DNA of 42,694 nt from a virus. Taxonomy: Duplodnaviria > Heunggongvirae > Uroviricota > Caudoviricetes. The notes below the pieces were generated by a model. The model was given only the letters and a program-made list of their open reading frames with translations, was not told the DNA's origin and did not search any database. The number at the start of each line of letters is the position of its first letter. Position 1 is the stretch's first letter. The position numbers were made by a program, and so were the translations under genes. Location of the stretch: positions 1 to 42,694 of the IMG/VR virus record IMGVR_UViG_2690316224_000012. One strand, given 5' to 3'. Below, one piece after another: positions 10,009 to 13,763 of this stretch.

Positions 10009-10281
10009 TTACCTCGCCGTCAATTGTTTTGATTTCCGGTAGCCTGCCGCGTAAACGGCTACGTTTGGCAGGCAAATACTTCCACTGCATTCATCTGCCT
10101 TCTTGCAGCGAAGGCTTCCGAGTGAAGCTGCTTTGTCTGCTCTGACGCAACCAGAGAGCTTTAGCGCAATTTTTCGCGCCAGTCGCTGCTCTTGCATTGC
10201 CTGTTCACGTTGAGCCTGTCTGCGTGCTCTGCGGCGATTTCTGGCGTTATCGTCAGCCAGATATGTAATGACTACTGTCAT
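10009..10281 (-). CDS. N-like transcription antitermination protein (P22 gp24-like)
   Basis: Arg-rich N-terminal motif (NARNRRRARRQAQRE); C-terminus VAVYAAGYRKSKQLTAR resembles P22 gp24; first gene after pL/nutL; GGAGGT SD. Confidence 0.65.
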   Translation of the reverse strand: MTVVITYLADDNARNRRRARRQAQREQAMQEQRLARKIALKLSGCVRADKAASLGSLRCKKADECSGSICLPNVAVYAAGYRKSKQLTAR

Positions 10282-10307
10282 GTTGACCTCCGATGATTGA
10301 CTTTGGC

Positions 10308-10366
10308 GGTGACGCGCCGGGTGCTTATCTTCCGGTTGCCGTCGTGCAGCTGCACTTCACGTCACC
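10308..10366 (-). other. Structured element in the N-gene leader
   Basis: Inverted repeat GGTGACG (10308..10314) / CGTCACC (10360..10366) enclosing the 12-bp perfect palindrome GTGCAGCTGCAC (10344..10355). Confidence 0.3.
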
Positions 10367-10639
10367 CCAAAGCCAACTACTCTTTGACTCACACTCTCGC
10401 AGTGAGCGCGCTCATGCCCTTGAGTCTCTGTCGCTTATTAGCCGCTGATAACCGGTGCGCGTCTGGCATTCGCGCTGCCTTTCCGGAGCATGTTCCCTTA
10501 TTTACCCTCACATCGGTCTGCTAAACCTGCTCGCCATTACGCGACTCGGGGCAGCATCATTACTGCTGCATTGCCTTTCGGCTGCGGTCTAACCGCGTTA
10601 GTGCACCATTACGGCACCTCCTGTTTGGTTAAACTCAGT

Positions 10640-10680
10640 TCCCGCATTTCGGCGGGACAATCCCATCAATGTTAAAGAGC
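10640..10680 (-). promoter_or_regulatory. nutL (boxA-like GCTCTTTAA plus boxB hairpin)
   Basis: Minus-sense TCCCGCCGAAATGCGGGA (10640..10657) is identical to the hairpin after cro; boxA-like GGCTCTTTAA 14 nt upstream (10672..10680). Confidence 0.6.
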
Positions 10681-10728
10681 CTGCCAATCTGTTCCGTTTG
10701 GCTACCAGCGTCCTGCTGATGGCTAAAG

Positions 10729-10813
10729 AATACTGTAGGTATTTTATTGTGTAAATACCCAAGGTATTTATTTTTGGTGAAATAATGATAAGCAAATGAA
10801 TACAAAGGATATT
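10729..10813. promoter_or_regulatory. OL operators and leftward promoter pL
   Basis: Three sites AATAC-N5-GTATT at 10729..10743, 10754..10768 and 10799..10813 (third AATACAAAGGATATT); same half-sites as at OR; minus-strand -35 TTTACA / -10 TATTCT overlap two of them. Confidence 0.55.
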
Positions 10814-10899
10814 TATTTTTTCGGTGTCTGCTTGTTCAGTGCTTTTTATGCGGGATATGTGAAGTGGATCCCGATAGCTATTGCTGCCGGGATTATGGG

Positions 10900-11289
10900 T
10901 TAGTCAGCGAAGGTTAAGACGAGAATTACCTTAATGATGTCTGCTACAACAGACACGGCCATAGATAAACCAAAGACGATCCAAGCCATAGAGATGTCTT
11001 CACTACCATCGTATAGAGTTCCGTAATCACTGGTGTAAGGCGTAAATGTCGCGCCTTGATACAACAAGTATAAGCTTGATCCATAGAGGATAAATGCAGA
11101 TATCCCTTGTATTGCTATGATCACTAGAATCATGAAACGAGCTGATCTATGCGCCCAAGCCTGGCTTATTTTTTCTGATAGAGATTTCGCAATAAAAGCA
11201 TGCGCTAAGCCGTAAATTGTCGAGATTGCCAACATCCCAAAAAAGCTTGCTATAGCGGTTCCAACCATAATCGCCCCTTGCGTGATCAA
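10900..11289 (-). CDS. Small integral membrane protein in the lysogenic (cI) operon, rexAB-position
   Basis: 129 aa, about three predicted TM segments; start overlaps the cI stop by 4 bp, so it is co-transcribed with the repressor; lies between cI and OL exactly where lambda carries rexA/rexB. Confidence 0.6.
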   Translation of the reverse strand: MITQGAIMVGTAIASFFGMLAISTIYGLAHAFIAKSLSEKISQAWAHRSARFMILVIIAIQGISAFILYGSSLYLLYQGATFTPYTSDYGTLYDGSEDISMAWIVFGLSMAVSVVADIIKVILVLTFAD

Positions 11290-12002
11290 ACCAGCCTTAG
11301 TTTTGTCTCAATTGCAACGCCTATAATCTTGCAGTTTCCATTGATTGGCACGAGAGGCCATGCAGGATTAAGTCCCTTGAGGTATTTATTTCCGCCGTCG
11401 ATTATCAGCTTCTTGAATGTTGCTTCGTTAGAGTCAGAAAGTTTTGCTATGACCAAGCTGCCGTTGATCGCCTCCCTTCCGGTATCGAAAAGAACGAATG
11501 TTCCCTCTGGAATGCTTAACCCAACCGGTGCCGTCATTGAATCACCTTCCACTTTAAGCCAGAACGCATTACCTTGAATATGCGCGTCAGACTCAAGCCA
11601 AACATCTATGTCTTTAATGGTGTATGGTTCGCATGCTTCACACCACGAGCCAGCCTGGATACTGCTTAACACCGGATACCTCTTTCCTGCTCTGTATTCC
11701 CCTGCATACCTTACGTTGGCATCGCTCTTAAGGCTTTCTGCCTGTTCTGCAACCTTGGCAGCAATTGACTGGCTAAAATCAGCAATTGAGACTTGCAACA
11801 GCCGTGCAAAACCAGATGCAACCTCAACGTTTAGCGCGTTTCTGCCATTAAGATAATGCCCTACCGCTCCTTGGGTGATACCCAGTTCATCAGCGATTGA
11901 GTATTGGGTTATTCCCAATTCTTTCTTTTTTGACTCATACAAAGCCTTAAGCCGCTTAGCGTCTTCGAGCTGTTCTGTCGTCAGTGATTTTTTATTTTCC
12001 AT
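11286..12002 (-). CDS. cI: CI-type prophage repressor (HTH plus S24 LexA-like autopeptidase domain)
   Basis: 238 aa; N-terminal HTH (ITQYSIADELGITQGAVGHYLNG); Ala-Gly site (SIQAGSW); Ser/Lys dyad motifs GDSM and FKKL; divergent from cro across the operators. Confidence 0.9.
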   Translation of the reverse strand: MENKKSLTTEQLEDAKRLKALYESKKKELGITQYSIADELGITQGAVGHYLNGRNALNVEVASGFARLLQVSIADFSQSIAAKVAEQAESLKSDANVRYAGEYRAGKRYPVLSSIQAGSWCEACEPYTIKDIDVWLESDAHIQGNAFWLKVEGDSMTAPVGLSIPEGTFVLFDTGREAINGSLVIAKLSDSNEATFKKLIIDGGNKYLKGLNPAWPLVPINGNCKIIGVAIETKLRLV

Positions 12003-12037
12003 AGCTTAATTCTAATAGCTAAGGTACTTAAACTAAA

Positions 12038-12079
12038 AATACCCTGAGTATTGATTGCTTTGAATACCTGTAGTATTCT
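12038..12079. promoter_or_regulatory. OR operators and rightward promoter pR
   Basis: AATACCCTGAGTATT (12038..12052) and AATACCTGTAGTATT (12063..12077), 25 bp apart; -35 TTGATT (12051..12056), 17-bp spacer, -10 TATTCT (12074..12079). Confidence 0.6.
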
Positions 12080-12108
12080 TTGTTCATGGTTAATAACGGA
12101 GAGTGCAT

Positions 12109-12303
12109 ATGATTCGAATGACACTTGCCGATTACGCCAAAATCCATGGACAGGCTAAAGCAGCCAGTGACTTTGGTGTAATCCAGTGCGCTATCAGCAA
12201 GGCCATTCTGGCAGGTCGTAACATTATGGTTACGGTAAAGCCTGATGGCAGTGTGATTGGAGAGGAAGTTCGTCCTTTCCCAAGCAACAAGAAAAACAAA
12301 TAG
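12109..12303 (+). CDS. cro: Cro repressor
   Basis: Track ORF begins with GTG at 12103; ATG at 12109 has GGAGAG SD; protein resembles lambda Cro (...[19 protein letters not shown] vs ...DGSVYAEEVKPFPSNKK). Confidence 0.85.
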
Positions 12304-12309
12304 TAACAC

Positions 12310-12353
12310 CGCTCTTTAACAGTCATGGTCCTCATTCCCGCCGAAATGCGGGA
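12310..12353 (+). promoter_or_regulatory. nutR (boxA CGCTCTTTA plus boxB hairpin)
   Basis: boxA CGCTCTTTA at 12310..12318, then 17 nt downstream the hairpin TCCCGCCGAAATGCGGGA (12336..12353), immediately after the cro stop. Confidence 0.6.
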
Positions 12354-12360
12354 ATACAAC

Positions 12361-12393
12361 GCGCATAAGTTGATGCGCATAACTTCTTATTAG
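12361..12393 (+). terminator. tR1-like hairpin between nutR and cII
   Basis: GCGCAT-AAGTTG-ATGCGC perfect 6-bp stem followed by a U-containing stretch (ATAACTTCTTATT). Confidence 0.3.
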
Positions 12394-12411
12394 TTAAGGA
12401 AATACTTACAT

Positions 12412-12690
12412 ATGCAACTTACAAGTACTCGCAAGAAAGCGAATGCAATTACAAGCAACATCCTGAATCGAATTGCTGTACGTGGTCAGCGAAAGGTTGC
12501 CGACGCGTTAGGGATTAATGAATCGCAAATTTCGCGATGGAAAGACAGCTTCATCCCCAAAATGGGAATGCTTCTTGCTGTTCTTGAATGGGGTGTTGAA
12601 GACGAGGAGTTGGCGGAACTGGCTAAGAAAGTAGCCAGAATGCTGACAAAAGAAAAAGCCCCGAAGAACGGCGAATTCTTCGAGGCCTGA
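12412..12690 (+). CDS. cII: CII transcriptional activator
   Basis: Resembles lambda CII (...SQISRWK...IPKMGMLLAVLEWGVEDEELAELAKKVA... vs ...SQISRWKRDWIPKFSMLLAVLEWGVVDDDMARLARQVA). Confidence 0.8.
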   Translation: MQLTSTRKKANAITSNILNRIAVRGQRKVADALGINESQISRWKDSFIPKMGMLLAVLEWGVEDEELAELAKKVARMLTKEKAPKNGEFFEA

Positions 12691-12724: not shown

Positions 12725-12886
12725 ATGACAAAACGTCGTAAGAAATACCAGGAAAAAGAAGAGATTCGACACCCTGATTCACCTGAGGGATTAGTGGTAG
12801 CCGCAGCAAATAACAGGGCGTTCGCAGAGCGCCTTGTTGGTGTTTACAGACTAGCCAAAGCAGGAGTGAAACATGGGCGTCGTTAA
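12725..12886 (+). CDS. Hypothetical small basic protein (53 aa)
   Basis: Sub-threshold ORF with GGAG SD; overlaps the start of the replication gene, so it could instead be a leader or translational-coupling element. Confidence 0.3.
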   Translation: MTKRRKKYQEKEEIRHPDSPEGLVVAAANNRAFAERLVGVYRLAKAGVKHGRR

Positions 12887-13763
12887 GTTAGCTGATTACA
12901 GGCATAACCCTGTACAACATCAGGAGGCATCCAGTATGGGGTATGCCTTTATACACCGCCAGTTTATGGACAGCAGGCTCTATAAGGACTCTCAGGCAGT
13001 ACATCTTTGGCTTCACTTAATCCTCAAGGCTAATCACGAATCTACTGTCGTCAATACGGATATCGGTCCGATAACTGTTGATCGCGGTCAGATGATAACT
13101 GGACGCCCGTCGCTGGTCAGAGAAACATTCATCCCCGACAACAAAGTTCGGAGCTTATTACGGACTTTTGAGTCGAAGGGGATGCTTAATATTTGCTCGA
13201 TGGGGAAGAAATTTAGCCTGTTTACAATCGTTAAATATGACGATTTTCAGGCAAAAAATTGTCCAACGGTTGTCCAACGGTTGTCCAACGCAAACACCAG
13301 TAATGGCGCGGCTCTCAGCGGAGATTGTCCAACGGTTGTCCAACGGTTGTCCATAAACAATAATATAAATAATATCTCTAATACTGACGTATTAGAGAGT
13401 GCCACAGCAGACAAAAAGTCTGACAAGAAAAAACCTTCCGTCAGCTGTCAGGATGTTGTCGATGCTTACCACGAAATCCTTCCTGAAGCGCCAAGAATCC
13501 GCGCACTGAATGACAAGCGTAAAAACCAGATCCGAACGTTCTGGCGCAAAGCCGGAGTGATAACCCGCCAGCTTGACGGGCATGGGTTCACGATGCAGGA
13601 CTGGAGAAATTATTTGAGCTACGTAGGCGAAAATTGCCGATGGATGTTCGAAGAACGCCCAAACCATCAACGCGGAACCGTCTGGCACAAAAAGGGATTT
13701 GACTTCCTGCTTAACGACAATACCTACCTGAAAGTTCGTGAGGGTGAACACGATGACCGATAA
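12873..13763 (+). CDS. Replication initiation protein (lambda O-like, iteron-containing)
   Basis: 296 aa immediately upstream of the helicase gene; AGGAG SD; origin iterons lie within its coding sequence, as in lambda O. Confidence 0.7.
   Translation: MGVVKLADYRHNPVQHQEASSMGYAFIHRQFMDSRLYKDSQAVHLWLHLILKANHESTVVNTDIGPITVDRGQMITGRPSLVRETFIPDNKVRSLLRTFESKGMLNICSMGKKFSLFTIVKYDDFQAKNCPTVVQRLSNANTSNGAALSGDCPTVVQRLSINNNINNISNTDVLESATADKKSDKKKPSVSCQDVVDAYHEILPEAPRIRALNDKRKNQIRTFWRKAGVITRQLDGHGFTMQDWRNYLSYVGENCRWMFEERPNHQRGTVWHKKGFDFLLNDNTYLKVREGEHDDR
13259..13383. repeat. Replication origin: two clusters of three 11-bp iterons (TTGTCCAACGG) plus AT-rich tract
   Basis: TTGTCCAACGG x3 at 13259..13291 and x3 (last partial) at 13325..13354, followed by an AT-rich stretch at 13355..13383. 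Confidence 0.7.

Follow-up and report, generated by a model that had tools for sequence, protein, structure and literature searches.

The cI gene of the viral DNA studied here is flanked on both sides by copies of one short dyad, AATAC-N5-GTATT, and this raises the question of whether these copies are the operators of a repressor switch and, if so, to which immunity group the switch belongs. An earlier note on this DNA had read them as repressor operators, with three sites at OL and two clear sites at OR, and had asked for a comparison with known immunity groups. Here, we have analyzed the dyads in the window, by which we mean the whole stretch of 42,694 bp, and compared them with those of related prophages. 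We conclude, with a probability of roughly 0.9, that the region is the immunity control of a lambdoid prophage with HK620 immunity, organized as a bistable switch of the lambda type.

Dyads on both sides of the cI gene

The dyad (AATACNNNNNGTATT) has four exact matches in the window, at 10729-10743, 10754-10768, 12038-12052 and 12063-12077. The mean in 100 dinucleotide-preserving shuffles was 0.03, and none of the shuffled sequences reached four. The exact copies form two pairs flanking the cI gene, with a start-to-start distance of 25 bp in each pair. That OL and OR share one operator family, as the earlier note had stated, is borne out by these counts, and its 25-bp spacing applies to both exact pairs. 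It does not extend to the third OL site, which is the single site in the window with exactly one mismatch (AATACAAAGGATATT, 10799-10813) and lies 45 bp from OL2. On the OR side, the two sites described earlier are both exact, but a degenerate third one that overlaps pRM had been missed: it is the two-mismatch site AATAGCTAAGGTACT at 12014-12028, within the cI-cro intergenic region, which corresponds to OR3.

When two mismatches were allowed, 21 dyads were found across the window against 16.8 expected, so that the relaxed motif is not enriched. Since this is close to chance level, the case for the weaker sites is made from their position and from relatives rather than from counts, and weak sites outside OL and OR were disregarded. 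We scored all sites with a PWM that was trained on relatives only, leaving out the window, and expressed the scores in bits and as ranks within the window. The four exact dyads take ranks 1-4 with 17.5-21.1 bits. OR3 is the weakest of the OR sites, and 0.20 sites of its score are expected per window by the PWM. While the 15-bp dyad described in the earlier note stands as the core, with its four exact matches, the functional unit is 17 bp, R-AATAC-Y-N3-R-GTATT-Y. The features are collected in Table 1.

Table 1. Sites, promoters and genes of the immunity region in window coordinates, with the matching features of the HK620 record
Feature	Position	Strand	Sequence or elements	Match, score or family	HK620 record
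OL1	10728..10744		GAATACTGTAGGTATTT (17 bp)	exact dyad; 19.0 bits	OL1, 10728-10744
OL2	10753..10769		AAATACCCAAGGTATTT	exact dyad; 21.1 bits, top site of the window	OL2, 10753-10769
OL3 of the record	10775-10791		TGGTGAAATAATGATAA	-30.4 bits, rank 14483	OL3, 10775-10791
tIMM of the record	10788-10818				tIMM, 10788-10818
Candidate distal OL3	10798..10814		GAATACAAAGGATATTT	one mismatch; 10.2 bits, rank 7	inside tIMM
pL	10727..10755	-	-35 TTTACA 10755..10750; 17-nt spacer; -10 TATTCT 10732..10727		pL, 10720-10755
hkaS-like ORF	10900..11289	-		from the ORF list	hkaS
cI repressor, 238 aa	11286..12002	-		Pfam HTH_3 and Peptidase_S24
Putative pRM	12009..12037	-	weak -35 TTTAGT 12037..12032; -10 TAGAAT 12014..12009		absent
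OR3	12013..12029		TAATAGCTAAGGTACTT	two mismatches; 12.8 bits, rank 5	OR3, 12013-12029
OR2	12037..12053		AAATACCCTGAGTATTG	exact dyad; 20.5 bits	OR2, 12037-12053
OR1	12062..12078		GAATACCTGTAGTATTC	exact dyad; 17.5 bits	OR1, 12062-12078
pR	12051..12079	+	-35 TTGATT 12051-12056; 17-nt spacer; -10 TATTCT 12074-12079		pR, 12051-12086
cro, 64 aa	12109..12303	+		lambda-Cro family; Pfam Cro PF09048, E 3.6e-26; lambda Cro 1cop, E 4.7e-19

Genes and promoters around the operators

The cI and cro genes diverge, with OR3, OR2 and OR1 between them. The cI protein aligns with the full-length lambda repressor (3bdn) at an E-value of 2.9e-52, with 53% identity in the N-terminal domain, and as the alignment is gap-free through that domain, the lambda numbering carries over. 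In its S24 domain, Ala117-Gly118, Ser155 and Lys197 align with A111-G112, S149 and K192 of the lambda repressor. Between cI and OL lies the hkaS-like ORF, for which a Pfam search gave no match and which is presumably co-transcribed with cI. Further out, a CII homologue accompanies cro on the plus strand to the right, and an N antiterminator is found to the left.

The hexamers assigned to pL, pR and pRM at the sequence level all overlap operators, and are kept in relatives. pL was picked up by a promoter scan and lies inside the pL annotation of HK620; OL1 overlaps its -10 and spacer, OL2 its -35, and relatives have an equivalent TATTNT -10 at the end of OL1. Transcription would start near 10720 and run towards nutL and N. 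pR, which also falls inside the corresponding HK620 annotation, scores 8/12 and was therefore missed by the scan, whose threshold was 9; its start is probably near 12086. OR1 overlaps its spacer and -10 and OR2 its -35, so that the end of OR2 gives the TT of the -35 and the end of OR1 the TATT of the -10, an arrangement repeated by OL2, OL1 and pL. The -10 hexamers of pL and pR are both TATTCT, where TATT represents the final four bases of an operator, and each agrees with the consensus at 4 of 6 positions. The earlier proposal that the -10 of both promoters is formed by an operator end holds across nearly all loci of the family, where it reads TATT(C/G/A)T. An alternative -10 for pR, TAGTAT, was rejected, as it would leave a spacer of 14 nt behind TTGATT.

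The putative pRM faces the cI gene. Its -10 starts in the outer end of OR3 and stops 6 nt before the cI ATG, its weak -35 adjoins OR2, and nearly all relatives have a TANNAT hexamer in the place of the -10. The short distance from TAGAAT to the ATG and the retention of this hexamer suggest a lambda-like pRM that would produce a leaderless cI mRNA starting near 12002 on the minus strand.

Identity with the HK620 immunity region

Positions 10638-12420 of the window are 99.0% identical to coliphage HK620 (GenBank AF335538 / NC_002730; Clark, Inwood, Cloutier and Dhillon, J Mol Biol 2001), whose locus (L001) is mapped onto the window by adding 9137 to the locus coordinate. No base of the OR region (11990-12115) differs among the window, HK620 and mEpX2, and in the OL region 4 of 131 positions differ from HK620, none of them in OL1, OL2 or the distal site. 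The Cro proteins agree in all 64 residues and the cI proteins in 237 of 238, the sole change, A66T, being outside helices 2 and 3. The comparison with known immunity groups that the earlier note had called for thus finds the operators matching OL1, OL2 and OR1-3 of HK620. Sharing repressor, Cro and operators, the prophage would, judged by its sequence, belong to the HK620 immunity group (imm HK620). The two phages are not the same throughout: the window has ∼250 bp more than HK620 between N and nutL, and as a whole it is an HK620-like mosaic of the P22-like type.

The operators and promoters are already known, as they were annotated for HK620 in 2001, and since their working is lambda-like as well, the switch itself brings no new biology. 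In the searchable literature we found no footprint, EMSA or mapped transcription start for HK620 or its relatives, and the operator annotation of HK620 therefore appears to be a prediction from sequence. What the present analysis adds is modest: a probable revision of OL3 and tIMM in the HK620 record, the likely leaderless-type pRM, the family-wide 17-bp consensus with a flank position that covaries with the proteins, and a set of operators paired with recognition helices from across the family. Assignment to the HK620 group predicts which superinfecting phages the prophage excludes, and also SOS inducibility. The module also occurs in mEpX2, HK630, HK140, HF4s and some Stx2c-converting phages, to which the region is as close as to HK620, and of 5426 complete E. 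coli genomes 146 (∼2.7%) carry it, which makes the assignment useful for annotation.

The third site on the OL side

Sites as good as the candidate distal OL3 are expected 0.71 times per window by the PWM; one within 100 bp of OL is thus unlikely, although this argument is modest alone. The arrangement recurs in relatives. In all six genomes of the subgroup to which the window belongs (the window, Serratia phage OS31, and loci L011, L012, L013 and L063), a site of 8.5-15.6 bits stands exactly 45 bp from OL2, and none of the six has a proximal third site. In the other subgroup, a strong proximal OL3 is found at 21 or 30 bp and there is no distal operator, except in L030 and L020, which have both sites. 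These observations tip the balance slightly towards taking 10798-10814 as OL3, a weaker and distal member of the cluster; failing that, a third OL site may be absent. Of the three OL sites that the earlier note had listed, OL1 and OL2 are therefore exact, whereas the third has one mismatch, is weaker and more remote, and is assigned its role with some reserve.

The HK620 record, if correct, would lead to a different picture, in which OL3 would correspond to 10775-10791, and the dyad at 10798-10814 would be no operator but the stem of tIMM, the terminator of the cI operon. The 22-bp spacing from OL2 that the record implies does resemble lambda, and the dyad sits in an A/T-rich inverted repeat adjoining a T6 run. 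We nevertheless consider the record unlikely to be right on this point. The stretch annotated as OL3 has the strongly negative score given in Table 1, differs in sequence from the window to HK620 and lacks conservation in the closest relatives, and on these grounds we rejected it as an operator. The folding energy of the tIMM hairpin is -0.6 kcal/mol for the cI-sense strand and -3.9 kcal/mol for the plus strand, values no better than those of shuffled sequence, which speaks against an intrinsic terminator, and the T-run is not on the strand that a terminator of cI transcripts would need. A stronger hairpin follows directly after hkaS (-15.3 kcal/mol, z -2.8), but has no U-tract. That the whole subgroup keeps the site at 45 bp in place of a proximal one also argues for the distal operator, and the OL3 and tIMM entries of the HK620 reference record probably need correction.

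A conserved A-tract element is also present upstream of OL; judged by eye, it is a poor match to the IHF site WATCAANNNNTTR.

Operators and the cI recognition helix

A scan of one genome per species gave 80 loci with a cI relative. For 26 of these, the N-terminal domain lies within the match and helix 3 has the sequence (T/S)QGAVGHY(L/I/M)NGR; they are spread over at least 14 genera, including Lelliottia, Siccibacter, Enterobacter, Tatumella, Lonsdalea, Serratia, Pantoea, Providencia, Proteus, Yersinia, Pectobacterium, Scandinavium, Kluyvera and Microbulbifer. AATAC-N5-GTATT sites are present in all 26. Upstream of cI, nearly every locus has three of them at spacings of 24/23 or 25/24 bp, with 10-11 bp between the cI start codon and the nearest site, and two or three sites are found downstream of cI wherever the examined DNA reaches OL. 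The central operator bases and the spacers vary freely among these diverged prophages. Within the 80 loci, those with other N-terminal domains have no AATAC-N5-GTATT, and where helix 3 is ITKGAVSHWLNAR, the variant TATAC-N5-GTAT(A/T) takes the place of the dyad.

The association was also seen in the reverse direction. More than 119 viral contigs have two dyads 24-25 bp apart; the 80 that were examined had been selected solely by this DNA pattern, and in 55 of them the QGAVGHY helix is encoded close by. That the sites track one cI recognition helix in 26 diverged prophages supports the earlier reading of them as repressor operators.

The outermost operator base

The half-site consensus of the family is rAATACY, and 198 of 206 half-sites have a pyrimidine at position 7. 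The family falls into two groups according to position 1 of the 17-mer. It is a purine in 45 of 52 half-sites where cI has Tyr34 and the recognition helix of Cro begins with IQC, and a pyrimidine in 132 of 154 where cI has Gln34 and this helix begins with HQT; the sample of viral contigs repeats this pattern (46/48 and 124/150, respectively). In two independent samples, then, the outermost operator base covaries with residue 34 of cI and residues 26 and 28 of Cro. The covariation could reflect two clades rather than a contact. We would only tentatively suggest that the operator family extends well beyond HK620, through many genera of Enterobacterales and to Microbulbifer, with two sub-specificities, and that in the purine/Tyr group the third OL site has moved from 21-30 bp to exactly 45 bp from OL2. 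If the subgroups proved to be heteroimmune, an immunity boundary would come down to one flanking base pair plus one or two residues, and the family would offer a compact natural system for the co-evolution of repressor and operator specificity.

The dyads might instead be the sites of a third protein, for example a host factor or a further regulator of the phage, and lie near the promoters by coincidence. Such a reading would draw on the remaining 25 of the 80 viral contigs with the paired pattern, which have no QGAVGHY-type helix in the DNA examined; however, about 10 of these are truncated OL-side fragments of the QGAVGHY family and about 10 more belong to a distinct AATACA-N3-TGTATT class. 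As the sites follow the recognition helix of cI across genera, and not the host, the outermost base covaries with cI and Cro, and the elements are laid out in line with those of lambda OR, we regard a different binding protein as very improbable. There is a negligible probability that the repeats arose by chance as A/T-rich palindromes, or are RNA hairpins, without a regulatory role, for although the region is A/T-rich and the two-mismatch motif is unenriched across the window, no shuffle matched the exact count, the stems are just 5 bp long, and the position and sequence of the sites are conserved in more than 26 diverged prophages whose operator centres and spacers vary.

Comparison with lambda

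Operators of cI and Cro thus remain the preferred reading of the dyads, and their arrangement can be compared directly with that of lambda. Read from the cI start, the OR region of the window consists of 10 bp, OR3, 7 bp, OR2, 8 bp and OR1, and is colinear with that of lambda, where the spacers are 10, 6 and 7 bp, so that the centre-to-centre distances are 25 and 24 bp in the window and 24 and 23 bp in lambda, a difference of 1 bp. Lambda likewise has 17-bp operators, pR hexamers on the ends of OR2 and OR1, pRM on OR3, an S24 autocleavage domain and a leaderless cI mRNA, as is predicted here. The differences lie in the details of recognition and in the OL arm. The lambda half-site is TATCACC, compared with rAATACY here, with A2, A5, C6 and C7 in common and positions 1, 3 and 4 different; the recognition helix is QSGVGALFN in lambda and QGAVGHYLN in the cI of the window. 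The third OL site of lambda is 20 bp from OL2, against 45 bp for our candidate, and the position of rexAB in lambda is occupied by hkaS. With operator, helix and layout differing in this way, the module is expected to be heteroimmune to lambda.

The residues that differ can be placed on the lambda complexes. In 1LMB and 6CRO, the contacts are made by what we take to be Q33, Q44, N52, N55 and K4 of cI and Q27, K32 and R38 of Cro, all of which are kept in the alignment, with S45 of cI and S28 of Cro presumably contacting operator position 4. S45 is changed to G here, as are G46 to A and A49 to H in cI and S28 to C in Cro. The pattern of kept and changed residues is consistent with lambda-like docking with an altered specificity.

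A model of the switch

By analogy with lambda, we infer how the cI/Cro switch would work, including binding itself, the order of affinities, cooperativity, looping and the transcription starts. Dimers of cI, or Cro in lytic growth, would bind the 17-bp pseudo-palindromes. With OR1 over the -10 and OR2 over the -35 of pR, bound cI would shut off cro and the early rightward genes. At the same time, OR2, adjoining the weak -35 of pRM and centred at about -43 from its predicted start, would have the geometry of class II activation in lambda. OR3, centred at about -19, covers pRM and could serve negative autoregulation or allow Cro to turn off cI. On the other arm, OL1 and OL2 cover pL and would thereby control N, which pL drives, with the site 45 bp away as the likely OL3. 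The Ala-Gly site and the Ser/Lys dyad in the S24 domain of cI suggest that the switch would be SOS-inducible.

Other operator classes

Similar dyads have been proposed before. For phage epsilon34, the proposed operator is WTACRAWWTGTAT (PMC2629481), which, as in other P22-like and lambdoid phages, has an ATAC-N5-GTAT core dyad and the same spacing as here. AATACA-N3-TGTATT or TATAC-N5-GTATA occupies the same places in loci L023-L027 and L034 and in about 10 viral contigs. The ATAC-N5-GTAT class differs from the family described here in having A at position 7 instead of C or T, and its partner repressor, with the variant helix 3 noted above, has a different N-terminal domain.

Operator classes and their repressors

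Operators of a sister class, reading AATACA-N3-TGTATT or TATAC-N5-GTATA, take the place of the AATAC-N5-GTATT dyad at OL and OR. This sister class is present in six of the genome loci encoding cI relatives (L023-L027 and L034) and in ten viral contigs picked by their paired dyads (L086, L091, L097, L110, L111, L120, L121, L129, L131 and L152). The genome loci of this class encode repressors with ITKGAVSHWLNAR as helix 3. For epsilon34, an operator similar to the sister class, WTACRAWWTGTAT, has been proposed (PMC2629481).

Three Microbulbifer prophages (L064, L066 and L067) share both the cI recognition helix and the AATAC-N5-GTATT operators with the family of the window. In L066, the product of the gene at the cro position is an HTH protein that is not of the lambda type; this locus would be a case in which Cro was replaced while the operator specificity was kept.

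The region between cI and OL

About 45 bp from OL2, towards cI, the relatives L007-L022 keep an A-tract followed by AAAT(T/A)CCCTT, equivalent to ∼10798-10822 of the window. Even those relatives in which OL3 is proximal and a distal operator is missing keep it. The element might serve as a half-operator or a host-factor site, or be DNA that is curved or UP-like.

The hkaS-like ORF, which gave no match in a Pfam search, may be a moron expressed in the lysogen; in lambda, its position is held by rexAB. Just 3' of the hkaS stop codon, on the minus strand, the RNA within 10820-10905 is predicted to fold into a stable hairpin of -15.3 kcal/mol (z = -2.8 against shuffles, none of which folded equally well), and no U-tract follows this hairpin.

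Antitermination and replication functions

The same boxA (GCTCTTTAAC) and boxB (TCCCGCCGAAATGCGGGAA) are common to nutL and nutR. The distance from N to nutL is ∼250 bp shorter in HK620 than in the window, where the stretch after N up to and including nutL is 10282-10681. Since 10600-10637 was matched by Stx2c-phage records only, the sequence comparison points to an insert or a mosaic joint in the interval that separates N from nutL.

Features of the immunity and early regions in the window
Feature	Position	Strand	Remarks
N gene	10009-10281	minus	97% identity to HK620 N
nutL	about 10640-10681	minus	boxA GCTCTTTAAC, boxB TCCCGCCGAAATGCGGGAA
hkaS-like ORF	10900-11289	minus	122-129 aa; between cI and OL
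nutR	about 12311-12357		boxA and boxB as in nutL
O-like replication gene	12873-13763		motif CPTVVQRLS repeated in the protein (13150-13440)

Matches of the operator weight matrix, which was trained on relatives only, to the A/T-rich stretch at 13358-13386 are weak and spurious. Because CPTVVQRLS is repeated in the O-like protein and the overlapping reading frames at 13150-13440 are also repetitive, the repeat pattern indicates putative ori iterons within the gene, and the replication origin of HK620 is likewise annotated inside O.
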